Shown one piece after another: positions 9,022 to 46,999 of a stretch of 64,000 nt of DNA. The stretch is from a virus, in IMG/VR virus record IMGVR_UViG_3300025015_000014, positions 1 to 64,000 of that record. One strand, 5' to 3'. How positions within the stretch are numbered: position 1 is the first letter of the stretch; every line of letters starts with the position of its first letter. Both the position numbers and the translations under genes were made by a program. The notes beneath the pieces were generated by a model, which saw nothing but the letters and a program-made list of their open reading frames with translations, was not told the origin of the DNA and searched no databases.

Positions 9022-10038
9022 TCAGACTCTCCAACCGTTCTGCTCACCATACCGTCTAGCTACTCGTTCTACTAGCTGGTCTTGACTCGGGAACAGACCC
9101 CACACCATTGGTGTGCCCGTGGACGCCTTCTTACCTGTACCAGGCAGGAACCAACTCTGGTCCTGCATGTGATTCAGAACAGCAACAACGTGTTTACAGG
9201 CCCCGTGCTTACCTGTGGGATCCTTGATCACTGGCAAAGAGGCAGTCCCCTTGGGTTTCCCATACAAATATCTCCCAATCAAGGCATGGTGTTCCGGTCC
9301 CTGCCATTGCCAGAAAGGACACGAACAGGATACCAGAAGATCTGCTTTCCGCACATCCTTGACGCCCGGTCGAGCCAGAGCCTTGACCCGAATCCGATAC
9401 ATGTCCCCCATTTTGGATCCAGGCACATCAAACAGCCACAAATGGTTCTTGGCATCCACCCGACGAAGTTTCACGGCCAAGCCATGAGCCCTCTGGGCAA
9501 CAGAGGGACCGCATCTGTCCAGAATCTCCCCTAGATGGACAGCAACTATATGTCGCTCATCCTTGTTTACGAAACCATAGCCATCTGGAATGACCTTGGC
9601 TGATCCGGGGAAACCCGGCTCTAGTTGAGGAACCACTCGGTCTACTTGCACATCCCCAGGAGGAACACCATTGAGATCAGCCCGGTCAAACCATTGACCC
9701 GGTTCCCGATCCATGGGAACCCTCTCGATCATGTCCCCCGTCACATCTGGTCTACGAACAGGGGTAGACCGAGCCGGTGGATCCGGATGTGGACTATCCT
9801 CTCCGGGTTTGCTCAGGGTTCGTGCTCGGTCCCTGGACAAGGACTTCCCATCAGGGGCATCCTCGGGAAGCCCCGGCTTGTTGTATTGCGGCATACCCGT
9901 AGGTTTACTTCGGGTCCAGGGGTCCGGCAGGGCTTGTTGGGAATAACCTGAGTCTGGTTGTGACCCATCAGGATTCTGAACAAAAGTCTGAACCCCCGGT
10001 AACTGAGATGCCGGTTGCTGATAGGCTCCGGATCTCAT
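9022..10038 (-). CDS. SWIM-type zinc-finger protein
   Basis: VSCSCPFW...GACKHVVAVL (CxC-xn-CxH), a Pro-rich N-terminus and C-terminal 'VERVARRY'. Confidence 0.65.
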   Translation of the reverse strand: MRSGAYQQPASQLPGVQTFVQNPDGSQPDSGYSQQALPDPWTRSKPTGMPQYNKPGLPEDAPDGKSLSRDRARTLSKPGEDSPHPDPPARSTPVRRPDVTGDMIERVPMDREPGQWFDRADLNGVPPGDVQVDRVVPQLEPGFPGSAKVIPDGYGFVNKDERHIVAVHLGEILDRCGPSVAQRAHGLAVKLRRVDAKNHLWLFDVPGSKMGDMYRIRVKALARPGVKDVRKADLLVSCSCPFWQWQGPEHHALIGRYLYGKPKGTASLPVIKDPTGKHGACKHVVAVLNHMQDQSWFLPGTGKKASTGTPMVWGLFPSQDQLVERVARRYGEQNGWRV

Positions 10039-10433
10039 TCTCGTCCCGCCAGATACCGTTTGGCCACCCGATCCACCACAGACTCTCGGGATTTCCCACC
10101 CCCACCGAAAGCCGATTGCACAGCTTCGTCCACGAGGGTTTTCTCGGACAACGGGAGTCGGGCCTCCAGGAAATCCTGTCCCATCTTGGCCAATGCCAAG
10201 CCGGTCCGATCCAGGACAACCTCCAACTGTTCCAAACGAGTTGGGACAGCCACGATGATGTCTCCGGCCATTTGGTAAAAGTGCTCTCGATGTTCGGAAG
10301 CGTCGATTAACTCTTGGGCACGGGTAGTCAGATGGCGAAGCCGATGGGCTTCCAATCTGGCCCGAGTCACTCCTTCAGTCAAGAGTGCCCAAGCGGCTTG
10401 GCTACTGGCAGTTTTCTGAACCCTGGTTTTCAT
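10035..10433 (-). CDS. Hypothetical helical protein
   Basis: 132-aa ORF with GAGGAG RBS, ending 'VVDRVAKRYL'. Confidence 0.65.
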   Translation of the reverse strand: MKTRVQKTASSQAAWALLTEGVTRARLEAHRLRHLTTRAQELIDASEHREHFYQMAGDIIVAVPTRLEQLEVVLDRTGLALAKMGQDFLEARLPLSEKTLVDEAVQSAFGGGGKSRESVVDRVAKRYLAGRE

Positions 10434-10476
10434 AGGGACTCCTCTCTAAGGAACCCCTATCAAAGGAAAAATGGGA

Positions 10477-11475
10477 TCAGGCAGCTTGTTGACGTTGGGT
10501 CATTTCAGACCGGATGTGCTTGGCCACGTTGGGCTGTTCCACGGCCAGGATCTGATCTATCAGGGTTGACTGACCCGCGAAGTTCTCAACGGCATCCTTC
10601 ACACGGGTTTTCCAATGCCGTTTCATGTCCCAGGCAAACTCTGGGGGATTGCTGGTTTGGGTTTTTCCGACACTGGCAAGCACACCCGCAGAGACCGCAT
10701 CTGGGAGCAACTCTTCCAGAATGTCTCCTGACCGGGTCTCGGAAACATCCCCCGTGGCCCCTCCCGGTCCCGTCGCCTTGATGTCCTCACCCTGGGGGAC
10801 GGGGGCCGCAATCTTGGTTGTTTTCGGTGGGGGTGCCCCATGAAGGGGATCCAACTGAGCAAGTTGTCGCCGAACAGCCGATGTGTCAGTCATGTCTACG
10901 GTAACCGTAGCAGGCCCCTTGATGCGAGCAACAGCTACAGCCCCCTGATCCTCGACATCCTCAGTCACCACAGCATATTTCTTGACTGGGGCCGGAGCCG
11001 GAGGCGCAGGCTGGGGAGCCGCCACCGGAGGTACGGGTCGAGCCGAAACATGAACCGGGACTGGGGCTGCAACTACCGGTTCTGGGGGAGGGGGTGGAAG
11101 GGTCCGAGGTTTGGCGGCTGCCTCTTTCGTCTTCTGTTGTGATGCAGCCAAAGAACCCACCTGAACCTCATCATCCTCCACTGACATCCCAACCTTCATG
11201 GGGGCACCCCGTTCCGACCCTGTAGACACGGCCGGACGAACCTGAACCCCAGCAGGTTGTGGCACATAATGGATGACAGCAGACCCCGTTGGGACGAGAA
11301 ACCCAGCCTTGATCCCGGACAACAACTTTGGATACGGGTAAAGTTGTCCACCGTATTTCATCGTCGAACCATCAAAGCCCACCACTGCCCCAGAAGGCAG
11401 GGAGAACTTCAGATCCCCGAGGTGTACCTCGGCGACGGCCCGGAAATCCTGAAAGGTCCCTTCCTGAAAATCCAT
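10477..11475 (-). CDS. Hypothetical protein with Pro-rich linker
   Basis: ORF 10477..11517. GAAGGAG precedes the ATG at 11475. Confidence 0.65.
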   Translation of the reverse strand: MDFQEGTFQDFRAVAEVHLGDLKFSLPSGAVVGFDGSTMKYGGQLYPYPKLLSGIKAGFLVPTGSAVIHYVPQPAGVQVRPAVSTGSERGAPMKVGMSVEDDEVQVGSLAASQQKTKEAAAKPRTLPPPPPEPVVAAPVPVHVSARPVPPVAAPQPAPPAPAPVKKYAVVTEDVEDQGAVAVARIKGPATVTVDMTDTSAVRRQLAQLDPLHGAPPPKTTKIAAPVPQGEDIKATGPGGATGDVSETRSGDILEELLPDAVSAGVLASVGKTQTSNPPEFAWDMKRHWKTRVKDAVENFAGQSTLIDQILAVEQPNVAKHIRSEMTQRQQAA

Positions 11476-12445: not shown

Positions 12446-12479
12446 ACTGGAATCCTCCCACCTTGGACACTCTCCCACA

Positions 12480-19186: not shown

Positions 19187-19203
19187 ATATACACAAGTTA
19201 CCG
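19187..19203 (-). promoter_or_regulatory. Candidate phage late promoter (CGGTAA-N5-GTAT)
   Basis: Minus strand CGGTAACTTGTGTATAT, overlapping the stop of the giant gene and upstream of the protease operon. Confidence 0.45.
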
Positions 19204-22200
19204 GAGAAATCTTCGTGTCATGTGTCTCCAAGCTACGGTTCTGGCTGTCTTACTCGGGACTGTTTCCAGTTCCCCCTCTCGCACGTACTCCCTCCCCCAA
19301 ACCATGGGGTCACCAGACTTGATGTAATCCAACACCTGGCGTTGAACTGGATCCGTTTTATCTGGCTCGATCCCGTCTGCCCGGAGTTGCTCCATCCAAA
19401 CGTCCATCCAGGTTTTGCGAACCTCGTCATCTAGTGTCGGGTCACACTTTGTCCCTGATAGACAAGCATCGGTAAACTTTGCAAGGGCATCCTGAAACCG
19501 TTTGTCCTTGCCCACCCGATCCGCTGCCGCATCAATCGCGGACTTCTTCCCCTCATAAGCCGATACAGCCATCGCGTGTATGGTGGCCATGGAATCTACG
19601 GCCATCATCTGAAGGAACTCCCGAATCACCTTTTTCTGTTCGGGATCCAGATCTGCCATGGCTTTGATGACCGGTCCCCAAACTCCTTTCTCACCCCCCA
19701 TGATCTCATTGAGTTCATCATCCCCAACTTCTTCCAGGGCTTCCTGAATCACCTTGCGTCCTTGGGGGCTATAGGCTCGTTCCACAGGCTCCAGCATCAT
19801 GTTCACCTTGCCCTTGGCCTTGAGGGCTTTAGCAAGGGCAATCTGCTCATTTGAGTGGGGGGCATGAAGAGATTCCGGCACCGGCTTTTCAGCCATGGAT
19901 GCTGCCAGGGCCAAACCTTCCAGGATGCTGTCTAGTTCCTGTCGCTTGGGGGAATCCTCGGGGGTGGCAGCCAGTTGATCAGCCATCTGCTTGGCTGCCT
20001 CTTCCAGGATGTTCTCCCCCGCAGACGAGAACTGTTCAAAAGCCTCCTGACTCCGTTCCTGTAGTTGTTGGGTGGTCTTGTCCTCGTCCGAAACGTCTTT
20101 CCCGCCAACCTTGCTGGGGTTAGCAAGGGTTTCTCGGGCGAACTGGGCCAGGGCAAGACTCCGGCCCTGGCCTTCTGGTGTTGTCCCACTCCCAGGGGAT
20201 TTCAGGGCTTTCTCGGCATCCGTCATCAGGGACTTGTAGCCCTTCTTGGCCTGGGCCTGCAACGCCTTCAGTTCCGTCTTGTATGTAGACACCAACCGGT
20301 CCATTCCTGCCTGATCTTTGGGGAGTTCTTTCGCGGATACGTCTTCCAACATCTTGGCAATCTCAAGTGGCACTTGAGGCTTGTCCTTGTCCTTGGACCT
20401 GCTCTTGAGATCCTTCTGGACATCCTCCTTTGTAGCCGTTCCCGTCGAGTCTTTGAGCACCTGGGAAGTGACAAAACTACGCACCTCCCCGACAGTCTTG
20501 AAGTGGCCTTTGGGGACTTTCAGTTTCTGTAGGATCCCCGCAACCTTGGGGTCGTCTACTGTTTGGGTATCGGGCAACGCAGCCAAGGCACCCCCCTCCA
20601 GAAACTCCCCCAAGCCCTTCAAGATTTGATCGGTTTTCTTGATGTGCGCCTCCGGGTCCAAGAGGGCATCTAGGTCGTCCTTTCCGGACCACCAGTCCGA
20701 CGTTCTCTTCTTACGGGCCTCGTTTTCCTCGGGGGTCTCCGCAGTCTCTTTTTCCTCGTCCTTCACGGGTTCTGTGGTCGGTGCCTCCGTTTTCGGCTCA
20801 GGGGCCGCCGGGGTTGGTTCAGGAGAAGCGGGGGCCGCCGGAGTTGGTTCAGGAGCAACAGGAGCCTTTGGCGACGGCTCGGCTGGGGCTTCAGGAACCT
20901 TCTTCTCTTTCTTGGGTGGCTTACCTACTGTCTTGGCTAGTTCGGGAACCTGTTTGATGAACTCCCGCACATCCCCGAAAGTCTTAAATAGGTGAGGCGG
21001 CAACCCCATGCTCTCAAGATGCGGGCGGAAATCTCTGTACTCGTCTTCGCCTTGTATGGCCTGTTCGTCCTTGATCTTCCCAAAGGATCCCCCTGGACCA
21101 AACAGATCCTTGACCTCTTTCATCATGGCTTTGAAACTGGGCTTGTCCAAAGAACCAACAAACTCCTCAATGGATTTGGCCTGGGGAGCAGCCGGTCCCT
21201 TCTTTTCCTCTGGGGCTTTCTCGGGTTCTGTCGATGTCTCAGGGGGCTTCTCCCCTGGACTCGTAGGGGCTTTCCCCTCAGGAGTTTCCTCTCCCTTGGC
21301 ATACGCCTTAGCCTGCTCTTCTTCCGGGAAGGCGTGAACTACCCCATCCTTGTTCTTGGCAACCCAGCCCTCACCCTTCTCGGACCTCCAAACCTCGCCC
21401 GGCTGACGTTTCTTTGCCACGGGGGCTTTGGTCAAGGGGGCTTTTTTCTTGGCAAGCCGCATGATCCAACGAGCAGCCACCCGCTTGTAATTGAGACTCA
21501 AATCATCGTCATTCTCGGCCCCAGCCCCCTGAGTATCCTCATCCGGTTCTTCGACTCGTTCCCGACGAAGATCCTCCCGTGGAGGCTTTTTCTTGGGTGA
21601 CGGCCGAACCAACCGTTCAGCTTCTTCGTCCTCTTTCTCGGCATCCGACTTGGTAGCCCAACGATAGGCTATTCGAGCGGCCATCTTTAGATCGGATAGG
21701 TATGGTGAAGGCAAGAGATTGTGGGTAAGCACGTCCCTCTGTACATCCAACTTGGCAGCAAGCCTAAGATTATGCTTCTGCCCTGTAGTGGCGTCTACCC
21801 ACGAGAAATTCAGAGGTTTGTCTTCCCCTGTACACAGACGGCACAATGCTTCTCCCGTTAGAACCTCATCTCCCACATGATCCTTACAACGGCACTTATT
21901 CACATTCCCACACCGGGGACAAGTCAATCTGAAGTGCTCGGGTGAAAACTCCTGAAAAACCTGAGTGACTGTTCGCGGACTGGAGGTTTCTTCCGATCCC
22001 CCTGTCAGATCCCAACGATTGTTCCACTGTCCCTGATTGGGATTCAAAGCAGATACCTTGGGTTGTCCCGGCAAGGGCTTCTCTTTCCAAGAGGCCACAC
22101 GCTGTGTAAAGTCTTTGATGTCCTGCTCATGTGCCTCAATTTCCCCCTCCAATCTGGAGAGCGTGGTTTTCAAAGCAGCCTCATAGCTCTCCTTTTCCCT

Positions 22201-25200
22201 ATAGGATGCAGACGCCTCGGGTCGAACAAGAGGTTTGCCCCGTCCCGGAATCTCATTCGGAGGATTCTGCTGCCAAGCCCTCAACTTCTGTTCTAGCCGT
22301 GCTTTCGAAGGTTTGAGCCCCCGCTCTATAAAGGCTTTGGTTCCATCGGGACTAAACTCAAACGGTTCCCATCCGGCTCCAAAGCAGGGTCCAGTATGTG
22401 TTGTTTGCCCGTACTGCCCACGGGACCGCTGCCCTTGAACAGACCATCCGTGGCGCATCATCTTGCCCTGAACCATCTTGACGTTGTTGAAACATACAGG
22501 GCAAGTCCCAGTGCCCTCTAAGGACCGTGCAGACGGGGGCCTGGACAAGGACTCAACAGTCTCTTGCCCCAGTGAGGCCAGAAACTCCGTAGCCGCTTCT
22601 TTCAAGCCGTTCTTGTATGCCCAAGTCCAGAATGCCGGGGATTGTATCTTGTGGGGGTCTTCAGTTTGTCCTCTGTGATCCACACGCAGAGGAAACTCCG
22701 GGGAGCTTACAGAACGAGCCATGACATTGAAAATGGGGACACCCATCCACCATAACTGCGTGTTGAGCGACCACGTAGGTCTTTCGGGACGCCAGAAAGA
22801 AGCAGGCTGAGGGGGCTCCACTTTCCCCACGTACAATTTGCCAGGGCTGGGATCCACTGGAGGATGACCAGGGGTCAACGGAAAATCCCGATATGCGGCT
22901 TCTGTGGTTTCTTGAGAATGGGTCCATAACTCAACTGGACCCTTCATGCCCGACCATGCAGAGACAACAACCTGATGTTTCTTCAACCAGGGTTCCCAAA
23001 GACTCTTCAGAACGTCCCCGATGTTGTCTAGAAGCCGGGCACCTTGCCCGGTGGTCACCGTCCAACCTAGATGCCCCAGGGCTTCCCGTAACAGATCGAT
23101 GTCTAGGGTAGATGTCTTACCTTGACCCTTGGCTGCCATTTGGAGGAAGCGAAGGACGGAGAAAGATGGGGTGGCGGCCTTTTTGATGAGCTTGTTGGGC
23201 TTGACGACCATCTCGGTCCAATGCTGGGAATCTGGAGCCACATGACCTGCCCGGACATACTTGGCGATGTTCTTGTTGAACTGGCTGTAGTGGAAAGCCC
23301 CCGCGTTCCGTACCACATAGCCTTCGGCTGGTCCCCCCGCACTGAACTTGGACTTACCGTCGAAGACAGCCTGGATTTTCTCTTCGTCCCATGGCCCCCT
23401 GTAGAGAACAGGAACCGTATGAACCCCAAGCAACTGTGCCCATTCCTCAGTGTCATCCCAGGAAAGGCACACGTTGTTGTTGTCCCAGATGGAGAACAGG
23501 ACGAAGTAGGAGGGCAGTTCATCATAGGCTATCGAGTGCTGTGCAAAAAGGTTCTCTCCGCAGAGTCTCCAACCGTCGGGTATGTCGTGACCAATCTGCC
23601 CAGCAAGACTCTTGACCCAATCCCGAGAAGGGTGCGGTTGAGGATCGAGGGAACGGGCATGACTATAATTCCTACCTATAGTACAGTTTTCTCCGTCGAG
23701 CTTTTCTGTGACGACAACCTGCTTACCCTTGAAGTGCCCGAGGTCTATCAGTCGGATGTCATCCCCGGTGAAACCAGGGGACCAGGGGACGTGCGGTGTG
23801 CGGGGATACTTGGTTTTCTCATCAACAGCCACGACCCACCGGTTTGCCACACGGGCATAGATAGACCCCCGCTTGTCCAGTTTCTTACTGACCTCCCCGT
23901 CCTTCAGGAATTCCTCTTCAAGCCCAGGCACAAGGTATTGCGACTTGAGGGTACTGGCTTCATGCCCGACTGCCTCAGCAGTAGCATCTAGGGCTTCCTG
24001 AAACTCCGTCTTGAGTTTCTCTTTCTTCTCCTTGGGGTTCTTCGGTAGGGCACCTCCCTTAGAACGAATGGCTTTGAGTCGTTTCTGCATCTCAGAGTTG
24101 GCGTGAAAACCCCGAAGATCCTTGGCCGTAACATCAAAGGGTTCAAGGTAGGCGTTCACTTCAACCGAGGTGACCTCGCAATCCTCACCCTCACAGACTA
24201 AATCCTCATCCCCCTTACCCCTCACGGCATCCTTCAAGGCTTTCAAGACGGGTTTGGACTCAACAACCTTCTCTTGCTTGACCCCCGACTTCCCCACATA
24301 TTTGACAACGGCCTTGCCATCCTTGAACGTGATGTGTTTAACTTTCCAGCCGGTAACTCCAAAATGGCCATCCGCTGCGGATTCCATGTTCCCAACCCGC
24401 TCGAAGGTCTCGTCAATCAGGGCCACCGCTAATGCCGTGTTCCTGGTCTGTTCATCCTTGGCTGTCAAATCCTTGCGGTACTTTTCCCGCAAGTCTCCGA
24501 TCTTGCCCCGGAGCTTCTCGACCCGTTCAGCCTTGTCGTGGTTTCGCAGGGCCACCTGACGGTCACTGTATTCGTAGACCGTGGTTGTCCCTTTGCCCTC
24601 GGCCTTGGGGACTTCTTTTTTCTCCTGGTAACGGGCGGCTACCCGGGCTACTGTTGCGGCATTCACACCCAACATGATCTCGTTGAACGCCTCAAGATTC
24701 GGGCCGGTCAGTTTGTTGATGGCATATAGGGACAAAGCCTCACAGAAATGCTCCTCTGGGTCAGATGCTGAATAGGGGGTGGGAAACTTACCCCTCTTAG
24801 CCACCTCCTGCACCCACCCCATCAATTGAGCCAGCCCTACTGATCCGATTGGCTGGTTTGTGGTCACATCAACCAAAGTGGCCTTTCCTGATGGCTGCTC
24901 ATACTGCTCCACCCGAACGGTCTTCTTGTTGACCTGAAGGGGTAGAACATCCCCCACTTCGGGGAGCTTAGTATCCACATGCCCATAGACCAGGGACGTA
25001 TGATGACTGACCCACTTTGACTTGATGGCTCTATCCAATTTCTTGGCCCAGAAACGGTGTCCCAACTCATGTACCAAATGACGAGCAGACTCTTCTACCG
25101 AAATACCCGAGATTCTGGGACGAAGGTAGATGACATCCTTGCTGGGCACATACCAGGCAGCCCAGTTCTTGCGTTTGATCTGGCCAACCAGAAACAACGT

Positions 25201-27702
25201 GCCATAGGACATCTGGGCGAACCCCGGCACTCCTGACCCGGAAACCGCCCTTGTCGCTCGGTCTATGATGTCCAAAGCAAGGTCAAGAGCCGGACCGATA
25301 GCCTGCACCGTGTTGTGTACGATGAACGGCCCCTGTTTGAAAACCCCACTCTCCTCAGACCGTTCGGGCCAAGCTCGGGCCTGGTCCAAAAGCACTAGCC
25401 GGGCTTCGTTGTTTTCAAACCATTTGATGATGTCCGATGGTCCCTTGCCCCACCCGTAGGAGCGTGAGAACAGACGGGCGGCCATCTCCACTGCTTTAGC
25501 CACTTTCGGGGGGAAAGCAAGATGGTCAATGACGTATGCTGCCCATTCTTGGCCCACCTTGTAGAACAAATGCCAAGCAACCCAAAGCGTTGACGTGTTC
25601 CCAAGGTTCAACGACTTGCTGTGTTGCACAGCCTCCCGTAGTTCCTGGAGTCTCGTGGGATACCCGTGTAACAAAGCCGGGTTCGCCAGTTTCCTGCGAA
25701 GCGGCTCAGAACTGGCTACCCGTCCTGCCTGCCATTTCTCAAACCGGCCCTTAGCCCAATCGAAGGCGGTTTGCATGTTCGGGAACCCTCCGGAATACGC
25801 CCGGTAGAGGTTCTCAACCTTTGAGGCATGGTCGTGCCCCTGCTCGTATGTGTCGCCCGCGTCCAGCATCAAGACGGTCTCGATGGCCTCGTGCAAAATG
25901 GTGAAAGCCGTGTCCTCTAGGGAGGGCTTGGACTCAACCCACAGTTCGTCCTTCGGGATGTAGCCGTAAACCGCGGGGTTTCCACCCTGAGTGAAGTCAA
26001 TGTCCACTAGGTTGCGAACTGCATTCCCATCCACAACCCAGACACGAAACCTGCCAAGCTCACCCAGACAGGTCTGCCTGACCCTTCCTTCAACGTAGTC
26101 TGGCATGGGACACTCGGGATGGGGCTTGCCTTGTTCTTCAGGGGGGAGGTCTCGCCAGCGACACTTGGAGAAAGCTGCCTGACGATGACGAGCCACAACT
26201 CGACCCACAGGGCCGATCTTCTCCCACCCCTCTCGGATGGTTTCCCCGAAAACCCGAATCAGGGCGGCCCCACAATCCTTTCGCCGTTGGAGATCGCACA
26301 CCCCTGGAAGCTCAAGGGTGTAGATCCGTAGGTCGGCCTTGGCCAACCAACCCTCGATGGACGTATCGTAAGAGCGCGTACCGGATGGTTCGTCGGCCAA
26401 ATGGAAATGATGGGCCGCCTCCTGACAAAGTCGCCGGGCTACTAGACTGGGCACTGAGAACCTGGGGTCGTCATAGACGAAAAACTCCCTGGCTTCCCAG
26501 TCCTCATGAACGGAACACACCCCATCTTGACCCACCTCGGCAAGTCGTTTGATGTGGGGCTGAAGGATCTCACCCTCAAAGGTATGTTTCTGACCTGGGA
26601 ACATCTCCCTATTGGGATCTCTCCCGTCCAACCCAACCCGTTCGTTTCGACGGAAACCGTGGGGGTTTACGACTGGAATAATAGAGACGGACACCCCCGG
26701 AACACAGTTGGGGTTCTCGAAGAACTTGCGAGCAGCAAAAACCCCACCCGGCTCATCCCCATGGACACCAGCCAGAACCAACACCTGCCGATTACCTGGA
26801 GGCACCTCTTTAGGGGTGAGCAACAGAAGGGGATCTCGGTCTACATCGCCCAACTCAAAGATGTTGTACCCATGCTCAGGGGCCAACTTCCGATACTCCT
26901 CATAGAGCCGGTCAAGATCCCTGTCCTCCTCGTGAGCAAAACGGGCCTCGGCCTCCTTGACCTTCCTCCCCCGGTTCTTCTCTCCATGAACCCATCTCCA
27001 GAACTGCCCGATGGGCATCGCCAGATGATCGTCCTCCTGGTAGAAACCCGGCTTGTCATACTGCTTCTTGTAGGCTCCGATGGCTTCTTCCACTGAGTCA
27101 AAACCCAGCATGACCTTGTCTTCATCGAACTTCCCAGTCTTGGGGTCGTGTTGATGGATGGCCACGACCACGGAAGAGTCGTGATTGTCTCCCACATAAG
27201 CGTCAAGCTTGTCTCCATCCACACCCTCAGTCCCCCGGATCTCGCCGTAGTGATAGAACATCTCGGTGGACCATTTGGTGCCGTCTGAACTCTCCCCCTC
27301 CCGAGTTGACCCTTTCTCGTTCTCGACATCGATCTCCAACCCCTGGAAGTCAATGTAACCTTGAAAGGGGAATTTCTTTCGTTTGGCCTTCGGGGGTTGA
27401 ACCTCAACCGGATGAAAGTTATGTGGGGCTTCGATGACTTCCTGATTCGTTCCAGCCTGACGTTCCATCAATTCTAGCTTGTCATAGTAGTTTGGATCTT
27501 CAGTGAGGTGGTCCATGGTGATCTCTTGAGCCATGTTGGGATCACCCGTATGTTCCATCTCAACTTTCTGACCTTTAGCCAGAGCCGTTTGGTCAAAGTC
27601 CTTAGGCTTCTTGCCCTTGGCGAGTCCACCGGGGATTTGCTCAACCCAACGGGCAGCAACACGAGCAACCAGGTGGTGTACACTGACAGGACTCCGCATC
27701 AC
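19198..27702 (-). CDS. Giant polyvalent protein (2834 aa): DUF5661-like, InPase-like, M14 peptidase, two zincin-like domains, topoisomerase IB, RNA ligase, Zn fingers, charged C-terminal region
   Basis: Motifs in order: VEMEH...MDHL.EDP.YY; IENxKGS.R.G...YG.I.GT.G.DGD.LD.YVG...FDEDKVMLGF; GVHGDE...PVVNP.G...DPNR...SVHE; HEAIE; HELGH...PY...EEHFCEA; RVGN...GKSG...KDLR...GH...SQY; KYPRTPH...TEKLDGEN...GE...EGYVVR...AKYVR. Confidence 0.85.
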   Translation of the reverse strand: MMRSPVSVHHLVARVAARWVEQIPGGLAKGKKPKDFDQTALAKGQKVEMEHTGDPNMAQEITMDHLTEDPNYYDKLELMERQAGTNQEVIEAPHNFHPVEVQPPKAKRKKFPFQGYIDFQGLEIDVENEKGSTREGESSDGTKWSTEMFYHYGEIRGTEGVDGDKLDAYVGDNHDSSVVVAIHQHDPKTGKFDEDKVMLGFDSVEEAIGAYKKQYDKPGFYQEDDHLAMPIGQFWRWVHGEKNRGRKVKEAEARFAHEEDRDLDRLYEEYRKLAPEHGYNIFELGDVDRDPLLLLTPKEVPPGNRQVLVLAGVHGDEPGGVFAARKFFENPNCVPGVSVSIIPVVNPHGFRRNERVGLDGRDPNREMFPGQKHTFEGEILQPHIKRLAEVGQDGVCSVHEDWEAREFFVYDDPRFSVPSLVARRLCQEAAHHFHLADEPSGTRSYDTSIEGWLAKADLRIYTLELPGVCDLQRRKDCGAALIRVFGETIREGWEKIGPVGRVVARHRQAAFSKCRWRDLPPEEQGKPHPECPMPDYVEGRVRQTCLGELGRFRVWVVDGNAVRNLVDIDFTQGGNPAVYGYIPKDELWVESKPSLEDTAFTILHEAIETVLMLDAGDTYEQGHDHASKVENLYRAYSGGFPNMQTAFDWAKGRFEKWQAGRVASSEPLRRKLANPALLHGYPTRLQELREAVQHSKSLNLGNTSTLWVAWHLFYKVGQEWAAYVIDHLAFPPKVAKAVEMAARLFSRSYGWGKGPSDIIKWFENNEARLVLLDQARAWPERSEESGVFKQGPFIVHNTVQAIGPALDLALDIIDRATRAVSGSGVPGFAQMSYGTLFLVGQIKRKNWAAWYVPSKDVIYLRPRISGISVEESARHLVHELGHRFWAKKLDRAIKSKWVSHHTSLVYGHVDTKLPEVGDVLPLQVNKKTVRVEQYEQPSGKATLVDVTTNQPIGSVGLAQLMGWVQEVAKRGKFPTPYSASDPEEHFCEALSLYAINKLTGPNLEAFNEIMLGVNAATVARVAARYQEKKEVPKAEGKGTTTVYEYSDRQVALRNHDKAERVEKLRGKIGDLREKYRKDLTAKDEQTRNTALAVALIDETFERVGNMESAADGHFGVTGWKVKHITFKDGKAVVKYVGKSGVKQEKVVESKPVLKALKDAVRGKGDEDLVCEGEDCEVTSVEVNAYLEPFDVTAKDLRGFHANSEMQKRLKAIRSKGGALPKNPKEKKEKLKTEFQEALDATAEAVGHEASTLKSQYLVPGLEEEFLKDGEVSKKLDKRGSIYARVANRWVVAVDEKTKYPRTPHVPWSPGFTGDDIRLIDLGHFKGKQVVVTEKLDGENCTIGRNYSHARSLDPQPHPSRDWVKSLAGQIGHDIPDGWRLCGENLFAQHSIAYDELPSYFVLFSIWDNNNVCLSWDDTEEWAQLLGVHTVPVLYRGPWDEEKIQAVFDGKSKFSAGGPAEGYVVRNAGAFHYSQFNKNIAKYVRAGHVAPDSQHWTEMVVKPNKLIKKAATPSFSVLRFLQMAAKGQGKTSTLDIDLLREALGHLGWTVTTGQGARLLDNIGDVLKSLWEPWLKKHQVVVSAWSGMKGPVELWTHSQETTEAAYRDFPLTPGHPPVDPSPGKLYVGKVEPPQPASFWRPERPTWSLNTQLWWMGVPIFNVMARSVSSPEFPLRVDHRGQTEDPHKIQSPAFWTWAYKNGLKEAATEFLASLGQETVESLSRPPSARSLEGTGTCPVCFNNVKMVQGKMMRHGWSVQGQRSRGQYGQTTHTGPCFGAGWEPFEFSPDGTKAFIERGLKPSKARLEQKLRAWQQNPPNEIPGRGKPLVRPEASASYREKESYEAALKTTLSRLEGEIEAHEQDIKDFTQRVASWKEKPLPGQPKVSALNPNQGQWNNRWDLTGGSEETSSPRTVTQVFQEFSPEHFRLTCPRCGNVNKCRCKDHVGDEVLTGEALCRLCTGEDKPLNFSWVDATTGQKHNLRLAAKLDVQRDVLTHNLLPSPYLSDLKMAARIAYRWATKSDAEKEDEEAERLVRPSPKKKPPREDLRRERVEEPDEDTQGAGAENDDDLSLNYKRVAARWIMRLAKKKAPLTKAPVAKKRQPGEVWRSEKGEGWVAKNKDGVVHAFPEEEQAKAYAKGEETPEGKAPTSPGEKPPETSTEPEKAPEEKKGPAAPQAKSIEEFVGSLDKPSFKAMMKEVKDLFGPGGSFGKIKDEQAIQGEDEYRDFRPHLESMGLPPHLFKTFGDVREFIKQVPELAKTVGKPPKKEKKVPEAPAEPSPKAPVAPEPTPAAPASPEPTPAAPEPKTEAPTTEPVKDEEKETAETPEENEARKKRTSDWWSGKDDLDALLDPEAHIKKTDQILKGLGEFLEGGALAALPDTQTVDDPKVAGILQKLKVPKGHFKTVGEVRSFVTSQVLKDSTGTATKEDVQKDLKSRSKDKDKPQVPLEIAKMLEDVSAKELPKDQAGMDRLVSTYKTELKALQAQAKKGYKSLMTDAEKALKSPGSGTTPEGQGRSLALAQFARETLANPSKVGGKDVSDEDKTTQQLQERSQEAFEQFSSAGENILEEAAKQMADQLAATPEDSPKRQELDSILEGLALAASMAEKPVPESLHAPHSNEQIALAKALKAKGKVNMMLEPVERAYSPQGRKVIQEALEEVGDDELNEIMGGEKGVWGPVIKAMADLDPEQKKVIREFLQMMAVDSMATIHAMAVSAYEGKKSAIDAAADRVGKDKRFQDALAKFTDACLSGTKCDPTLDDEVRKTWMDVWMEQLRADGIEPDKTDPVQRQVLDYIKSGDPMVWGREYVREGELETVPSKTARTVAWRHMTRRFLR

Positions 27703-39827: not shown

Positions 39828-40477
39828 TATCGGCTCCTTGCCTGATGGCGGGCCGCCACCCTCAACACCAACGGATCGGCACAACCCGTTGATGCCTGTT
39901 TCATCCGACTGGCCTTCTTACCCTGTTGTTCCTCATCCATCTCGGCTTCTTCGCCCTCGGCCCAATCCTCGGGATCTGCCTTGATTTCTTCCACGTCCTC
40001 CATGATCTCCTGAACCTGTTCCCGCTCCCTGGGCTGATCGGTCACATGTTCTGACGACCAATGGGGAGCATGGATCTCATCATAGAGGGTGTCGGACAAA
40101 GAGGAAAGAGCCTCCACCACGTTCATGAAAGCCCGTCGCATCTCGGCAATCTTCTGAATGTAGCCTCGGCCGCCCAAGTTCCCATCAGGACTAAGGGCTG
40201 CTGATTTCAACCGAGTAAAAGAATCATAGGCCGACAAAGCATGTCCCATGGACATCAAGGTAGAACGCAAGGTTCTGGCTAAGGGTTGGAGTTTCCGGGC
40301 ATCAAACTTGAAGTCCGGATCCATCTTCCGTTTCTCTGGCCCAGGAACACCCCAGCCCCAGTTCTTGTCATCGGATCCCCGGTCCTTGATGAAACGAACT
40401 TCGCCAGCCGTTTTCACTCGCTGGGATCGAACAGCCACTCGGGCTATCAAGCTGTCATTCCGGGTTTTGTGACTCAT
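39827..40477 (-). CDS. Hypothetical protein
   Basis: Starts MSHKTR. Contains IARVAVRS near the N-terminus and LRVAARH near the C-terminus. Confidence 0.65.
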   Translation of the reverse strand: MSHKTRNDSLIARVAVRSQRVKTAGEVRFIKDRGSDDKNWGWGVPGPEKRKMDPDFKFDARKLQPLARTLRSTLMSMGHALSAYDSFTRLKSAALSPDGNLGGRGYIQKIAEMRRAFMNVVEALSSLSDTLYDEIHAPHWSSEHVTDQPREREQVQEIMEDVEEIKADPEDWAEGEEAEMDEEQQGKKASRMKQASTGCADPLVLRVAARHQARSR

Positions 40478-40500
40478 CTCTCCCACCCAAAGACCCCATT

Positions 40501-40517: not shown

Positions 40518-40520
40518 GAC

Positions 40521-41384
40521 TTACCCCCCTGCCAAGGTCTCAGCCTGGGGCACCCCAAAGTCTTTCTCCAGGTTCACCGAATCGAAATGGAACCGTCGTC
40601 CATCCCAGATCAAGTACCGATGGCCAATCAAGTACAGGAGTCGGGCTATAATGGCTGCCGGAAACAGGGTGAACGTCCCGAGATGCAGGGCATTCATCAA
40701 GGCTCCGATGGCTGAACTGGGAAGAGACCCCAACAAATCAACCAAAGCAATGTGTCCAGTCATGGCATCTGTCAGGCTCTTCACATCCCACTCGAACTCC
40801 ACGACGTTGAACCAAACCCAGATGTAGATAGCAGCCATCAACACCGTGGAGACCACCGGGAGATGTTCCCGAAGCCACTGGTCGAACTGATCCACCTTGG
40901 CTTTGGCATGAGTGCGTAACCAACGGTCAAAAGCCGGGTACTTCTTGACCAACTTGTCCAGAAGGTCATTCACACTGAAGACCTTGCCCTTCTCCAGGGT
41001 GTAGATCTTCAGAGGCCAGGTCTCAAAAGCCTTCTCCAACAGACCCCGAAGATACCTGTAGCCCTTCTGAGCCAACTCCTTGATCGCCTTGGGGATGTCC
41101 CAGAGAGACTCGATGCCTATGAGACTCTTGAACTTCTCCCATAGTTGCGGGGCTTTCTTGAAAAGGTCGGTCAGTTGCTTGAGCTTCTGGATCAGACCCG
41201 CCACATGGATTTGGCCTGAGTGTGTTGGGAGGTAGAATCCCTCAACGAAGGCTTCTACCACACGGGGGGTCAGATCGTGGAGGGTTGCCCCTCGGGTTCT
41301 GAAGGCTGGGGTCTCACAGGCTTGTCGAACAGCGAGCCTGATGAGATACCGATCAGCAACCCTTTGAGCCAGATCCTGCATCAA
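40521..41384 (-). CDS. Hypothetical protein with C-terminal hydrophobic helices
   Basis: N-terminal LAQRVADRYL. Hydrophobic segments VVSTVLMAAIYIWVWF and TLFPAAIIARLLYLI. Confidence 0.6.
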   Translation of the reverse strand: MMQDLAQRVADRYLIRLAVRQACETPAFRTRGATLHDLTPRVVEAFVEGFYLPTHSGQIHVAGLIQKLKQLTDLFKKAPQLWEKFKSLIGIESLWDIPKAIKELAQKGYRYLRGLLEKAFETWPLKIYTLEKGKVFSVNDLLDKLVKKYPAFDRWLRTHAKAKVDQFDQWLREHLPVVSTVLMAAIYIWVWFNVVEFEWDVKSLTDAMTGHIALVDLLGSLPSSAIGALMNALHLGTFTLFPAAIIARLLYLIGHRYLIWDGRRFHFDSVNLEKDFGVPQAETLAGG

Positions 41385-42055: not shown

Positions 42056-42081
42056 GGCTTCAGTATAACAGATCAAGCCCA

Positions 42082-42744
42082 TCATACAATACCAAAAACC
42101 AACAGCCACGAAGGCGATCCATCATTGCCCCAACCATCTGGTTCAACCCGCTTTCCAGAAGGGGTTGTGGCCACTGCATCATCCGACATTTTCTCCAATC
42201 GGGCTAAACCTGGTGGCTTTGCCACTCCCCCGACCATCTCCCAAAGTCGGGTGATGGATACCTTCATGGGGTCAAACCGGTAGTTTCGTCCGGTCGTGGG
42301 CGACACCCATTCCAGAACCAAATGGGCCAGGGTTGCTCCATGGGGATCCCGTTCACCGAGATACTTGACCTCGGCACGGGTTCCTTTGGGGACTATGTCC
42401 CCGTTCTTGAGCTTCAGGTCTTTCTTGGTGGCGGTCATCCCGGCCTTCTTCTGACTGGCAAAAAAATGACTGGGAAGCCTGAGACCCAAAGAATTAGCCG
42501 CCTTGAAGATGTTGTTCCTCTGAAGGTCTGGTTGCCACCGACCTACGTTCTCGACGGATCCATGAAGCCGAGCGAGAGCCTCACGCTGGTTAGTTGTCAG
42601 GTCTAGGGCATCGGCAAGAGCCGACCAAACATCCCGGAGCAATTCGGCTGATTGTTCATCAGTTTTTGCCAGACTGTCATAGAGCCTCTCAAAGGCTTGA
42701 CGCCCAACCAGAGCCCCCAAAACATCATGTCCGGTCATGGGCAT
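42082..42744 (-). CDS. Modular hypothetical protein
   Basis: 220-aa ORF with two parts joined at 'KKAG'. Ends VEPDG..DG.PSWLL..G, a motif seen in small phage proteins. Confidence 0.6.
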   Translation of the reverse strand: MPMTGHDVLGALVGRQAFERLYDSLAKTDEQSAELLRDVWSALADALDLTTNQREALARLHGSVENVGRWQPDLQRNNIFKAANSLGLRLPSHFFASQKKAGMTATKKDLKLKNGDIVPKGTRAEVKYLGERDPHGATLAHLVLEWVSPTTGRNYRFDPMKVSITRLWEMVGGVAKPPGLARLEKMSDDAVATTPSGKRVEPDGWGNDGSPSWLLVFGIV

Positions 42745-45278: not shown

Positions 45279-45283
45279 TCAGC

Positions 45284-45970
45284 CTACCCCACAAACACGT
45301 CGTAGCCGACGGTAACAGATTGCCCAGCCCCAAGCACCTGACCCAAAATAATCGTGAACCCGGTCTTGGCCTTACTGGTGGCTGTAGCCGTAAAGAACCC
45401 GTTGGGAGAGAACACCACCCGGTAAGCCGCCGTGGACAAGGCCGCCGTAAACACTACCGCCTTTGATCCCCCATCTGCATCCGTCAGGGTTACTGTCCCA
45501 CTGGTGGTGCTCACTTGCTGCGTGGCAACCAGAATCACGTAGGTCACGGTGATGGGGACGAGTACCGTACCATAGATTGCCGGGGCTTCGGCTGTGAACC
45601 CGGTTGCCGTCTTGCCCGTGGTTCGAAGGATCGTCCCATCGGGGGTTGTGTAGACCACTCGATAGTTGGCGTTGTTGAGAACCCCTGGAGCAATGACCAC
45701 TGCCATTGAGGCTACGCCCGCAAAGACAATGTTCCCACTAACCACCTGTGTTTCGTGAAGAAGCTGTGTGGTTGTGTACTTGGCCTCTGTGATGTCATCC
45801 ATTACGGAGGTCGGGACACTGGTGATTGAATCTGTAATGAGTCCCTTTGGTCCTCGGATGTTTCGTACCGACACCAAACCCTGGGCGTCTACCACCACAT
45901 CGAAGTAGTAGCTCTGCCCCCCGGATGCGGAGGTGTAGGTGATTACGGATTGAGTACGAGAAAGCGCCAT
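45284..45970 (-). CDS. Putative virion protein with two lectin-like repeats
   Basis: Duplicated 'YRVV.......KT.TGFT...' modules similar to the C-terminus of 44025..45278. TGATG overlap at the start. Confidence 0.6.
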   Translation of the reverse strand: MALSRTQSVITYTSASGGQSYYFDVVVDAQGLVSVRNIRGPKGLITDSITSVPTSVMDDITEAKYTTTQLLHETQVVSGNIVFAGVASMAVVIAPGVLNNANYRVVYTTPDGTILRTTGKTATGFTAEAPAIYGTVLVPITVTYVILVATQQVSTTSGTVTLTDADGGSKAVVFTAALSTAAYRVVFSPNGFFTATATSKAKTGFTIILGQVLGAGQSVTVGYDVFVG

Positions 45971-46698
45971 CACACCCCTCGTGGCCGATGACGAAGCAAG
46001 GGTACCAAAAGGCAACGGAATTCCGGATGCTCATGGGCCAGCTTGGCAATCTGGTCCCGCAATCCCCCTGCCGTCTTGATCCTGACATCTCCTTCTATGT
46101 AGTTCCGCATGTTGAGGGAGAAACGCACCCCAGGGTATCTATCAAGATTGAATTTGATGCTCGACCCAGTAACAGCCACGATCTGTCCTGCATCCCCCAC
46201 CCGTATGGGGTATGCCCGACCAAACATGAGGGGCTTCAGGAACTCCAGGGTCATCCCTTTCTTGGGCTGAACGAGATGGGTTTCCCCAGCCTCAAGCAAG
46301 GTGAAATACTTGGGGTTCCACTGTCGAATTTTAGCCCCGTGTTGTTCCTGCGTCAGGGTGCCCCCACCCGCCTTTTGGGCCAGAATCTTGTCCCACTCCG
46401 GGTGTTCATACATGGGGATGCTGTACTCTATGTCCTCTTCGTACCAGTACGCCCCACCCCAAAAATCCCCGAGTTTGACAGCGGCAGGGGTCAACATCTT
46501 CCGGGCCACTGAGGGAGATACCATCAAGCCGCCGTGCCCCGCTGTAGTGAACCAACGAACCCCTGGGATTATGTTGTAGACCCCTTGAGCCGGTCCCCAT
46601 GGCGTTTTGGGGGCTTTCGGATCCGGAAACGGGTAGTCCGACCAAGAACCGTCTTCGCCCGCCGTTCTGTACATCTTACCAAATCCCTGTTGTTTCAT
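45970..46698 (-). CDS. DUF7007-like domain protein with C-terminal shared tag
   Basis: TPWG.AQ...PGV....TAGHGGL.VS...WYEED. C-terminal KTAGGLRDQIAKLAHEHPEFRCLLVPLLR. Confidence 0.6.
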   Translation of the reverse strand: MKQQGFGKMYRTAGEDGSWSDYPFPDPKAPKTPWGPAQGVYNIIPGVRWFTTAGHGGLMVSPSVARKMLTPAAVKLGDFWGGAYWYEEDIEYSIPMYEHPEWDKILAQKAGGGTLTQEQHGAKIRQWNPKYFTLLEAGETHLVQPKKGMTLEFLKPLMFGRAYPIRVGDAGQIVAVTGSSIKFNLDRYPGVRFSLNMRNYIEGDVRIKTAGGLRDQIAKLAHEHPEFRCLLVPLLRHRPRGV

Positions 46699-46999
46699 AG
46701 TCCCGTTTCTCGAACCAACTCTGAAGTTTCATCAAGGCTTCCCGGTTCCGGGACCATATCTCAACCGCATCGAAGTCCTCTTTGATCCCCAAGTCACGGA
46801 TTGGGGTCAGCCCTTCCATTGCCACGCGACCATCTCGGAAGGACTTCAGTAGACTCGGGAGATTCTTGATCTCACAGGTTCCATACAGGACACGGAGACG
46901 GTACTCGGGAGAAGCCATTTGCATGATCCAACGACGGGCAACCCGATGGACCATGATGACGTGTTTCTCTTTCTCGGGTTCTGGCACGGGTGCCCCCAC
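46676..46999 (-). CDS. Hypothetical protein
   Basis: First gene after the candidate late promoter. Contains MVHRVARRW. Confidence 0.6.
   Translation of the reverse strand: MGAPVPEPEKEKHVIMVHRVARRWIMQMASPEYRLRVLYGTCEIKNLPSLLKSFRDGRVAMEGLTPIRDLGIKEDFDAVEIWSRNREALMKLQSWFEKRDYETTGIW

Follow-up and report, generated by a model that had tools for sequence, protein, structure and literature searches.

The capsid-targeting sequence (CTS) of phage T4 is found only at the N-terminus and is removed by gp21. Encapsulin cargo-loading peptides, as well as the coat-binding C-terminal helices of the scaffolding proteins of P22-type phages and herpesviruses, are short peptides at protein ends or basic helices, carried by flexible linkers; they attach to the inner surface of an HK97-fold shell and can be transferred to foreign cargo. 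The sites cut by prohead proteases of the T4 and phiKZ/SPN3US types are short and extended, with Glu at their end, and recur in many head proteins, among them capsid and scaffold proteins. The only element common to the diverse internal proteins of T4 is a CTS, one short peptide which directs unrelated defence-related proteins (viz. IPI-III and Alt) to the prohead (PMC3012670). In phage P1, the N-terminal 30 residues of DarB, a very large (250-kDa) multi-enzyme anti-defence protein, suffice for capsid targeting, and its packaging depends on other Dar proteins; this signal concerns one protein, and the available text of the source reports no shared consensus (PMC9024508). Polyvalent proteins are predicted to be packaged and injected; in the article describing them, the word 'linker' occurs 0 times, and no account of a peptide recurring in linkers or at termini was found (Iyer et al., 2017, PMC5512222).

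In the present work, we describe a short sequence tag that is borne by about a dozen proteins of an uncultivated huge phage; several modules of a multi-enzyme protein of 2,834 residues are among its carriers. Most likely, this tag does not mark protease cuts but docks its carriers to a shared partner, which is probably the capsid under assembly. The tag resembles the T4 CTS in being a single short peptide on unrelated proteins, but it occurs at N-termini, at C-termini and internally, with up to six copies per chain, and its consensus is much sharper. The giant protein carries a copy at residues 14–19, which is comparable, by description, to the N-terminal signal of DarB. Its gene is late and portal-linked, and like the polyvalent proteins this protein joins several effector-type enzyme domains, here DUF5661, InPase, peptidase, TopIB and RNA ligase. 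The consensus of the encapsulin, P22-type and herpesvirus peptides is unlike that of the tag. The capsid protein encoded here is a 290-aa HK97-type protein and is a putative partner of the tag.

The tag and its carriers

Our analyses covered the window, i.e., the whole stretch of 64,000 nucleotides, in which a curated set of 64 minus-strand proteins (20,703 aa) contains 10 matches to the core pattern [RK]VAxR[WYH]; 500 within-protein shuffles gave 0.054 on average and never more than 1. A six-frame scan for VAxR[WYH] found 12 matches in the minus frames (11 of them within genes) and 1 in the plus frames, and the DNA pattern MGNGTNGCNNNNMGNTRB has 11 matches compared with 0.43 +/- 0.61 expected, a count reached by 0/100 dinucleotide-preserving shuffles. 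The enrichment is ~25- to 185-fold across three null types, and nearly all matches lie in frame on the coding strand. The motif is real, and because the codons of the tag vary synonymously, selection acts at the protein level. The first-pass annotation of this DNA had quoted the motif in 15 strings, all of which are present in the named proteins; 12 of them contain the core [RKT][VI]AxR[WYH], whereas GRVVARHRQAA, AGRVASS and VRRVAETW lack it.

The full tag comprises ~12 residues with the consensus Φ-A-x-R-V-A-(A/S)-R-(W/Y)-Φ-x-(R/K). The regular expression was defined post hoc, after the motif had been seen, and bias was also tested at the positions which it leaves free. Among 34 instances, position -2 is Ala in 18, position +3 is Ala or Ser in 22, position +6 is Leu, Ile or Val in 25 and position +8 is Arg or Lys in 16 (p <= 4e-7 for each), while Ala at +2 (34/34) is fixed by the definition of the motif. 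The tag is placed at N-termini, C-termini and inter-domain linkers; 15 of the 28 strict instances of the contig and its relative G004 lie <=40 aa from an end, whereas 27% would be expected to do so (p = 0.0026).

The gene for the giant protein is flanked by the portal and prohead-protease genes, and a domain search detected no MuF anchor domain in its product, which contains metallopeptidase-like HExxH segments. The features of this protein are as follows:

19198..27702, minus strand: giant polyvalent-type protein, 2,834 aa, with six tag copies (DUF5661, InPase, M14/AstE-like peptidase, TopIB, RNA ligase)
27646..27663, minus strand: tag copy 1, RVAARW, aa 14–19 (N-terminus), preceding DUF5661 (43–81)/InPase
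24628..24645, minus strand: tag copy 2, RVAARY, aa 1020–1025, just N-terminal to TopIB (1053–1254); position kept in relatives (LR745208 NVAAKY, G004 RVAAKY)
23836..23853, minus strand: tag copy 3, RVANRW, aa 1284–1289, junction of TopIB and RNA ligase (1328–1483)
21658..21675, minus strand: tag copy 4, RIAYRW, aa 2010–2015
21466..21483, minus strand: tag copy 5, RVAARW, aa 2074–2079, with DLSLNYK directly ahead; the giant protein of G004 has DLSLNYKRVAMRW as the orthologous copy
19222..19239, minus strand: tag copy 6, TVAWRH, aa 2822–2827 of 2834 (C-terminus), degenerate, with GDPMVWG ahead
21433..21663, minus strand: conserved linker module, aa 2014–2090, with ATKxxAEKEDE, LV[KR]P[SA]PKxKPPRxDL, an acidic stretch and DLSLNYKRVAxRW in this order

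The domain borders are Pfam coordinates, and they bear out the placement of the copies (aa 14, 1020, 1284, 2010, 2074 and 2822) at domain junctions that had been proposed from the letters. The other carriers in the window, together with one doubtful instance, are:

9049..9066, minus strand: C-terminal tag RVARRY, aa 325–330 of 338, SWIM-finger protein 9022–10038 (g9022)
10053..10070, minus strand: C-terminal tag RVAKRY, aa 122–127 of 132, helical-hairpin protein 10035–10433 (g10035), with an FGGGG linker ahead; modelled as a separate terminal helix
18077..18094, minus strand: doubtful instance RVAETW, protein 17846–18418, without Arg at +4; motif in 0/6 homologs
28628..28645, minus strand: tag KVAARW, aa 280–285 of 342, protein 28454–29482, two genes upstream of the giant protein
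39845..39862, minus strand: C-terminal tag RVAARH, aa 233–238 of 243, protein 39827–40558; the G004 ortholog has the C-terminal end RVAHRYLQRSAS
40424..40441, minus strand: degenerate N-terminal copy RVAVRS, protein 39827–40558 (G004 ortholog KVAARH; LR745208 SRVA-GRM)
41346..41363, minus strand: N-terminal tag RVADRY, aa 8–13 of 287, protein 40521–41384 (G004 ortholog QIADRY)
46928..46945, minus strand: N-terminal tag RVARRW, aa 19–24 of 107, protein 46676–46999 (g46676), modelled as a lower-confidence helix before a ferredoxin-like domain

In a 17-sequence alignment of the last tag, A21 and W24 do not vary, and R23 is almost invariant. The tag is absent from the free-standing CCA-adding enzyme 30244–31008 and from a 1,762-aa DUF2958 protein, though both are polyvalent-type.

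Conservation in relatives and association with enzyme modules

Throughout a clade of phages of 380–540 kb, the tag is kept at orthologous positions in protein families that are otherwise 35–70% identical. This conservation, together with the enrichment over three nulls and the in-frame location of the matches on the coding strand, makes it very improbable that the instances lack a common function and merely reflect chance composition or the usual structural helices of folds unrelated to each other, even though a PDB profile search retrieves similar buried helices (e.g., QVALRW of aldo-keto reductase, E 0.21) and the g46676 helix stands directly ahead of a folded domain.

Across 41 related loci, the tag is present in 28/41 g10035 homologs and, at the terminus, in 25/37 g9022 homologs, the latter being stop-to-stop ORFs of 293 to 1,230 aa, some of them cut by a contig end. 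With the g10035 homologs and 7 duplicate loci removed, 27 matches remain versus 5.9 +/- 2.3 in shuffles, 22 of which are in g9022 homologs. The tag follows a Gly-rich linker in 94 of the best 120 of 211 g10035 homologs. The same loci have no match in the homologs of the capsid protein (0/36), g13515 (0/32), the protease (0/17), g8654 (0/33), g7859 (0/34), g6522 (0/25), g5645 (0/24) and g4677 (0/19), and 2/25 scaffold-like homologs match, both with the weak TLAVRH. G004, a complete relative (435,804 nt), has 15 strict matches versus 0.44 in shuffles, and 9 more minus-strand matches outside its called genes. Genome-wide counts of the strict pattern against a control are 6 vs 3 in LR745208, 3 vs 2 in G003, 5 vs 2 in G005 and 8 vs 4 in Tunturi_5, and the pattern has 0 matches in Bacillus phage G; since several relatives lack genome-wide enrichment, the sharpness of the tag varies within the clade. 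The sole phage record with homologs of g10035 or g9022 is LR745208, which is uncultured and unannotated.

The conserved replication block is free of tag matches: 0/16 matches of the contig fall in its 29 proteins (9,199 aa) and 0/21 of those of G004 in the corresponding 31 proteins (8,571 aa). The contrast is weak, however, with P ~0.02 for the contig and ~0.25 for G004 by a hand calculation, and the matches cluster within proteins.

The tag accompanies the TopIB, HAD phosphatase and C39 peptidase modules both in fusions and as free-standing proteins. The TopIB domain of the giant protein has a tag on both flanks, and tagged TopIB is also found in a 528-aa HAD-TopIB protein of LR745208 and a 1,003-aa TopIB protein of G004. 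In 34/56 HAD_SAK_1 homologs the tag lies right behind the HAD domain, where either the protein ends or another domain is joined on, and both genomes have a tagged C39 peptidase.

Helical character and the cleavage reading

The biased positions of the tag (viz. -3, -2, +1, +2, +5 and +6, with -1 and +7 not hydrophobic) have a helical periodicity. Val, Ala, Trp/Tyr and the next Φ residue form a hydrophobic face, to which a ladder of Arg at 0, +4 and +8 adjoins. The tag is modelled as a basic amphipathic helix on flexible linkers: AlphaFold2 predicts a helix (H119–131) after the linker of g10035 and another (H18–28) in g46676, the latter with pLDDT 56–67 compared with about 90 for the domain behind it.

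In helices that bind membranes or nucleic acids, charge and amphipathicity are usually all that is conserved. A basic face with an aromatic residue in a terminal position, on carriers many of which act on DNA or RNA, would suit such a helix acting without a protein receptor, or a site for an enzyme modifying the arginines. We consider this unlikely, since Ala +2, Ala/Ser +3, Ala -2 and Val +1 are tightly kept, and these small residues and Val +1 argue for close packing on a defined protein surface. The g10035 and g9022 tails of one genome also tend to covary (e.g., RLAARY/RLAARY and NVVNRY/SVVNRH); this co-variation is only suggestive, the 23 non-duplicate pairs comprising 3 L/L, 13 V/V and 7 mixed.

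The first-pass annotation had offered two readings of the motif, a docking helix and a cut after [KR]-x-A by the protein 16334–17845. The identification of the latter as a prohead protease is supported (phrog_18299, E 2.5e-8; 35% identity over 154 aa to a Bacillus phage G gene annotated as gp19). A recognition or cleavage site for this protease, or for the HExxH segments of the giant protein, by which a polyprotein would be processed to single enzymes, would accord with the copies at domain borders and the protease homolog encoded nearby. Proteases of the T4 and phiKZ/SPN3US types process many head proteins (PMC10052503, PMC7411985), autoproteolysis by embedded metallopeptidases is proposed for polyvalent proteins (PMC5512222), and cleavage can coexist with tagging, as with the T4 CTS. 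This reading is nevertheless quite improbable. In the expected main substrates, matches are absent (capsid protein) or few and weak (scaffold-like protein), and in free-standing proteins many copies lie at the extreme termini, so that a cut there would free no more than 5–15 residues and achieve nothing. The conserved positions are helical rather than extended, and known prohead proteases have short, extended sites that do not resemble an amphipathic helix of 12 residues. The supposed abundance of K-x-A does not hold in the giant protein (13 K.A vs 20.5 +/- 4.2), and in the scaffold-like protein the excess (25 vs 11.5 +/- 2.9) is due to 7 copies of an EPKEAKK repeat. The docking helix, in contrast, fits the helical character, the terminal placement and the travel with modules; the observation itself is confirmed, and its earlier interpretation is partly supported.

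Proposed docking to the prohead or to another hub

Our preferred, still tentative, reading is that the tag is a transferable docking tag which loads polyvalent-type effector enzymes into the prohead. Roughly 15–30 proteins per genome of the clade would bear it, and all would bind through it to a single receptor that the phage encodes and that forms part of the prohead during assembly (the scaffold core, the inner wall of the capsid or the portal), such that the tagged proteins may be encapsidated and then delivered with the DNA. The proposed cargo would include the giant-protein modules (InPase/M14 peptidase, TopIB and RNA ligase) as well as the HAD phosphatase and C39 peptidase in free-standing form, two conserved proteins of the head module and a membrane-type protein. 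Several tags on one polypeptide could provide avidity, and every module could stay attached even after a later processing of the polyprotein. The scaffold-like protein of the clade keeps a different conserved C-terminal tail, and the tag is therefore not a general scaffold-to-capsid contact.

It is possible, but rather doubtful, that the same docking helix serves another phage-made hub, such as a platform for assembly or replication, a chaperone system or a complex of several RNA/DNA-repair enzymes, and this is the main rival to docking in the prohead. Many carriers repair or process nucleic acids (TopIB, RNA ligase, HAD_SAK_1 and the LigT/CCA domains of the G004 giant protein), and the proteins tagged at both ends (39827–40558 and 77633–78742) could act as bridges. 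A DnaJ-domain protein with an N-terminal variant (RVTARY) and the tagged 107-aa protein, whose gene adjoins sigma-factor-like and KOW genes, do not look like injected effectors, and none of the measurements is specific for the capsid. However, the recognisable replication and recombination proteins (RecA, the clamp loader, the RecD-like helicase, RNR, the methylases and the PD-(D/E)XK nuclease) are devoid of the tag. The genes of the two most conserved carriers belong to the head block and follow the capsid-protein gene downstream at a distance of a few genes, and the position of the six-tag giant protein between the portal and protease genes also favours the prohead. Some ejection proteins have a hydrophobic, membrane-like part, and the C-terminal half of the tagged protein 40521–41384 is strongly hydrophobic and membrane-like in the same manner.

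Occurrence of the tag in the window and contig

All of the long open reading frames (ORFs) in the window are located on the minus strand, and they include the late genes listed below, beyond which replication and recombination genes are recognized (PHROGs/Pfam).

Features of the window that bear on the tag (coordinates, strand, description).
33710-35560, minus: terminase large subunit (PHROGs/Pfam)
31063-32748, minus: portal (PHROGs/Pfam)
19198-27702, minus: giant protein (Pfam DUF5661, 7e-8; InPase, 2e-37; AstE/M14-like, 2e-6; Topoisom_I, 5e-26; RNA_ligase, 3e-35)
16334-17845, minus: prohead protease (phrog_18299, E 2.5e-8)
14412-16337, minus: scaffold-like protein, acidic, 641 aa
12630-13502, minus: major head protein (phrog_2522, E 8e-51)

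The portal is 66% identical to that of a 485-kb uncultured phage (LR745208.1) and has distant kin in Tunturiibacter phage Tunturi_5 and Bacillus phage G. The virus contig is 132,786 nt long, the window being its first 64 kb, and the relatives with a matching gene order have genomes of 381-536 kb; the contig is therefore a piece of a huge phage.

The first-pass annotation of this DNA had quoted 15 strings as examples of a recurring peptide motif, here called the tag. All 15 are found at the places indicated, and 12 of them carry a core of the form [RKT][VI]AxR[WYH], whereas GRVVARHRQAA, AGRVASS, and VRRVAETW do not. The enrichment over background that it had proposed to look for is present, as the 64 curated proteins (20,703 aa) contain 10 matches to the core [RK]VAxR[WYH] compared with 0.054 in 500 within-protein shuffles. 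A six-frame scan for VAxR[WYH] gave 12 matches in the minus frames and 1 in the plus frames, and the back-translated DNA pattern has 11 matches vs. 0.43 +/- 0.61 in dinucleotide-preserving shuffles. A chance origin of the motif is thus excluded for practical purposes. A signal at the DNA level was also ruled out; Arg, Val, and Ala are encoded by freely varying codons in the different tag copies, and the constraint therefore acts on the protein. A perfect DNA-pattern match, RVATRW (14972-14989, minus strand), lies out of frame in the scaffold-like gene within a 16-codon ORF and is probably due to chance.

At least 10 unrelated window proteins share a consensus of 12 residues, which is also found in about 25 proteins of G004, a related huge-phage genome. 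Further strict copies are present in the contig outside the window, viz. in a 369-aa protein (at both ends), a C39-like peptidase, and a 664-aa protein, and a HAD_SAK_1 phosphatase of the contig has the near-strict RIASRW at its C-terminus. The suggested contrast between late and replication proteins is weak, with 0/16 hits in the 9,199 aa of the replication block in the contig and 0/21 in 8,571 aa in G004.

Form and placement of the tag

The anatomy of the tag was determined from 34 distinct instances in the contig and G004. Several positions that are not fixed by the search pattern show clear preferences, viz. L/M/T/I/V at -3 (22/34 instances), Ala at -2 (18/34), Ala/Ser at +3 (22/34), L/I/V at +6 (25/34), and Arg/Lys at +8 (16/34), and positions -1 and +7 are not hydrophobic. 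Judged by this periodicity (i, i+3/4, i+7/8), the conserved positions are predicted to line up on one side of a helix, flanked by a ladder of Arg residues. In AlphaFold2 models, the tag of g10035 (a helical-hairpin protein, 10035-10433) is a separate C-terminal helix (residues 119-131) placed past a Gly-rich linker and a long helical hairpin, and that of g46676 (a 107-aa protein, 46676-46999) is an N-terminal helix of pLDDT 56-67 with a ferredoxin-like domain of about 90 behind it. The basic face of this helix would fit a nucleic-acid- or membrane-binding element or a modification site, but such functions account poorly for the tightly kept small residues, and we consider them improbable.

Searches with the carriers gave little information about function. 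For g10035 as a head-tail adaptor, a Foldseek search against the PDB was uninformative (best E 0.8), and the ESM Atlas contained no usable match for it as an adaptor or scaffold; a wide VIA-align search returned nothing more specific than generic helical hairpins (designed proteins scoring best, Z 9.6), and the best match in BFVD had an E value of 0.065 (Gp20 of phage G, 0.34). The g46676 domain had only weak ferredoxin-like matches in a fold search, g9022 (a SWIM-finger protein, 9022-10038) matched in the Atlas only viral hypothetical clusters with SWIM, and a PDB profile search from 12 window tag instances found nothing useful (best E 0.21).

Strict instances are concentrated near protein ends, with 15/28 lying at most 40 residues from a terminus (27% expected, p = 0.0026), and the 12 core copies in the window comprise 3 N-terminal, 4 C-terminal, and 5 internal ones. 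The internal placement at domain borders claimed earlier is evident in the giant protein, a chain of 2,834 aa with six tag copies, where the copies fall between Pfam domains. The tag as a part of DUF5661 was ruled out, as the Pfam match begins at aa 43 (profile position 22) and the tag occupies aa 14-19.

The giant protein, whose gene is located between the portal and prohead protease genes, has the architecture of the polyvalent proteins as set out in PMC5512222, with at least two effector-type domains per polypeptide and a late/packaging-gene setting. It also contains the strings HEAIE (at about aa 604) and HELGH (at about aa 876), where no Pfam peptidase or MuF hit is found; they may belong to zincin-like processing peptidases embedded in the chain, a feature of other polyvalent proteins. 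A linker module of ~70 aa is kept in three genomes (window 21433-21663, minus strand; locus L001 22056-23639; G004 giant protein aa 1850-1920) in the order ATKxxAEKEDE, LV[KR]P[SA]PKxKPPRxDL, an acidic stretch, and the tag, and its proline-rich/basic part may act as an additional site for binding or processing. The sequence G[DT]PMVWG precedes the C-terminal tag by 15-25 residues in both the giant protein (about aa 2797-2803) and g9022 (about aa 307-313), and this common element suggests that their C-terminal tails are homologous modules.

Distribution of the tag among related phages

The tag is found in several protein families of related phages. Among 41 related IMG/VR loci, some of which are near-duplicates, plus-strand ORFs have 60 loose and 25 strict matches and the opposite strand 4 and 1, and when 7 duplicate loci and the g10035 homologs are left out, 27 matches remain vs. 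5.9 +/- 2.3 in shuffles, 22 of the 27 being in g9022 homologs. By family, the tag is present in 28/41 g10035 and 25/37 g9022 homologs of these loci. The g9022 homologs, which are stop-to-stop ORFs of 293 to 1,230 aa (some cut by contig ends), mostly end in ...RVAxRYL..., and x[VIL]Ax[RK][WYHF] occurs near the C-terminus in 94 of the best 120 of 211 g10035 homologs. Residues A21 and W24 do not vary across the 17 aligned sequences of the g46676 family. In 34/56 HAD_SAK_1 homologs the tag directly follows the HAD domain, which places it at the C-terminus in some and at the junction with another domain in others.

The tag is present in 2/25 homologs of the scaffold-like family (both with a weak TLAVRH) and in 2/39 g10477 homologs, and among the 41 loci it is found in none of the homologs of the capsid protein (0/36), g13515 (0/32), the protease (0/17), g8654 (0/33), g7859 (0/34), g6522 (0/25), g5645 (0/24), or g4677 (0/19). 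These counts bear on the first of two functions proposed for the motif in the first-pass annotation, namely that the prohead protease cuts after [KR]-x-A. Neither the capsid protein nor the scaffold-like protein of the window carries the motif, many copies are located at the extreme termini of free proteins, and a protease site would be short and extended, whereas the tag has a helical periodicity and adopts a helix in the models of two proteins. The K-x-A triplets that were said to abound in the scaffold and linkers are not in excess in the giant protein (13 vs. 20.5 +/- 4.2), and their excess in the scaffold-like protein, although present, is due to seven EPKEAKK repeats. A role of the tag as a prohead-protease site is accordingly highly improbable.

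The G004 genome is complete (435,804 nt) and contains 15 strict and 21 loose matches vs. 0.44 and 2.9 in shuffles, with nine extra matches on minus-strand ORFs that had been displaced by a crude gene caller. Its carriers include a 2,493-aa polyvalent protein (LigT, CCA-adding, TopIB, GNAT), a second TopIB protein, a C39 peptidase, HAD_SAK_1, and a WLM peptidase, and the contig and G004 share orthologs in at least eight carrier families. Plus-strand genes are carriers in 16/271 cases and minus-strand genes in 0/176 (p = 3.6e-4), a comparison which is approximate because the greedy caller displaced several real minus-strand ORFs. Looser forms (SVAGRW, RVAKRF, and, ahead of TopIB, NVAAKY) are found at orthologous positions in LR745208, where TopIB is part of a free 528-aa HAD-TopIB protein with the C-terminal end ...TVASRWQDRFLD. 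The strict pattern is not enriched genome-wide (pattern vs. control) in LR745208 (6 vs. 3), the related genomes G003 (3 vs. 2) and G005 (5 vs. 2), or Tunturi_5 (8 vs. 4), and Bacillus phage G has 0 matches. A PSSM scan, whose matrix was built from regex hits and is circular, served only to list variants. Our search found no cultured phages with these carrier families.

Probable docking role and proposed destination of tagged proteins

The tag is most likely a docking peptide for one common putative receptor, which agrees with the second function proposed earlier, a docking helix. It has the signature of such a peptide because a sharply conserved amphipathic helix is borne on flexible tethers by many unrelated carriers, and because it stays with enzyme modules whether these are fused or free, often with several copies per chain; docking would explain why the same peptide accompanies both states. 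Some results point the opposite way, viz. the lack of genome-wide enrichment in several relatives, the tag variant of a DnaJ-domain protein, and two proteins without a tag, a free-standing CCA-adding enzyme and a 1,762-aa DUF2958 protein. This enzyme (30244-31008, minus strand) belongs to the CCA-adding/poly(A)-polymerase family, and the homologous region in G004 (67% identity) forms a domain within its giant polyvalent protein.

For the destination of the tagged proteins we tentatively favor the prohead, with less than even confidence. The gene for the six-tag protein lies between the portal and protease genes, and this protein has the domains of polyvalent proteins, for which packaging and injection have been predicted (PMC5512222; PMC7824862). 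The two most conserved carriers are encoded in the head gene block, the C-terminal half of one carrier is membrane-like, and the replication block is devoid of the tag. Direct precedents are provided by the T4 capsid-targeting sequence (PMC3012670) and by the N-terminal signal of the 250-kDa P1 protein DarB (PMC9024508). Lastly, the g10035 and g9022 tails of one genome tend to co-vary, which in a small and phylogenetically dependent sample hints at a shared partner. The tag resembles the T4/P1-type sequences in being a short peptide common to diverse non-structural proteins; it differs in that those are N-terminal and only 3/12 core copies in the window are so placed. Docking to a hub other than the capsid would better account for a DnaJ-domain protein with a tag variant and for a sigma-adjacent carrier, and this alternative is only somewhat less probable than the prohead.

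Under the prohead reading, each module of a multi-tag polyvalent protein would be fastened to a receptor that repeats in the prohead. That a clade of uncultivated phages of 380-540 kb uses one sequence-defined "address label" for protein encapsidation is an idea we put forward with considerable reserve. If it is true, the injected proteome should be predictable from the tag, with enzymes of RNA repair and DNA topology, peptidases, a membrane protein, and a J-domain protein among its members, and the tag could be used directly to load foreign cargo into the capsids of huge phages. Huge phages are nearly all uncultivated and the proteins they carry into the cell are largely unknown; a sharp, transferable tag allows a defined protein set to be listed from sequence alone. 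Were the capsid the destination, this would be the first case of a packaging signal defined by a consensus and shared by many proteins in many genomes, and it would link polyvalent proteins mechanistically to head assembly. Capsid-targeting and cargo-loading peptides are already known kinds; what would be new, given a docking function, is one sharp consensus in 15-30 proteins per genome across a huge-phage clade, usable at either terminus or in linkers and repeated along a polyvalent protein. A literature search, with most subscription journals and supplements outside its scope, retrieved no description of the motif, including in the available text of PMC5512222 and PMC7824862.

The scaffold-like protein (14412-16337) has several features of its own. 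An EPKEAKK(G/A)KKAKKS-type repeat occurs seven times (with repeats of 75 and 105 nt in the DNA), a PPAxPGY..EDQDHPAH motif is duplicated in the N-terminal part, and a pair of calcium loops resembling EF hands, which score below the Pfam threshold, lies at about aa 250-296. The protein ends in a conserved tail, RPQPRK..GVK..LSxLWxSxPDVSxVFG, that is different from the tag. The EF-hand pair was considered as the tag receptor and dropped, the segment being missing in 5/12 aligned homologs; in at least one of these five loci, L017, tagged neighbours are still present.

Two adjacent proteins upstream of the giant protein (27712-28464, aa 110; 28454-29482, aa 322) contain PETRKHL[LV]PL[IL]R; a motif of this type follows directly behind an RVAHKY tag in locus L013 (14265-14750) and was not found in G004. 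Two further proteins are inserted among the late genes: one is GcrA-like at its N-terminus and resembles an MTES_1575/DUF559 restriction endonuclease at its C-terminus (29416-30243, minus strand; all hits below Pfam thresholds), and the other is an HNH + NUMOD3 homing-type endonuclease (41381-42109, minus strand). Beyond the window, the contig has LAGLIDADG/intein-like insertions in a RecD-like helicase and in ribonucleotide reductase (67096-70824, 71357-74197), as well as a GroEL-like chaperonin and the DnaJ-domain protein, whose N-terminal tag variant is RVTARY (90409-92088, 126970-127953).
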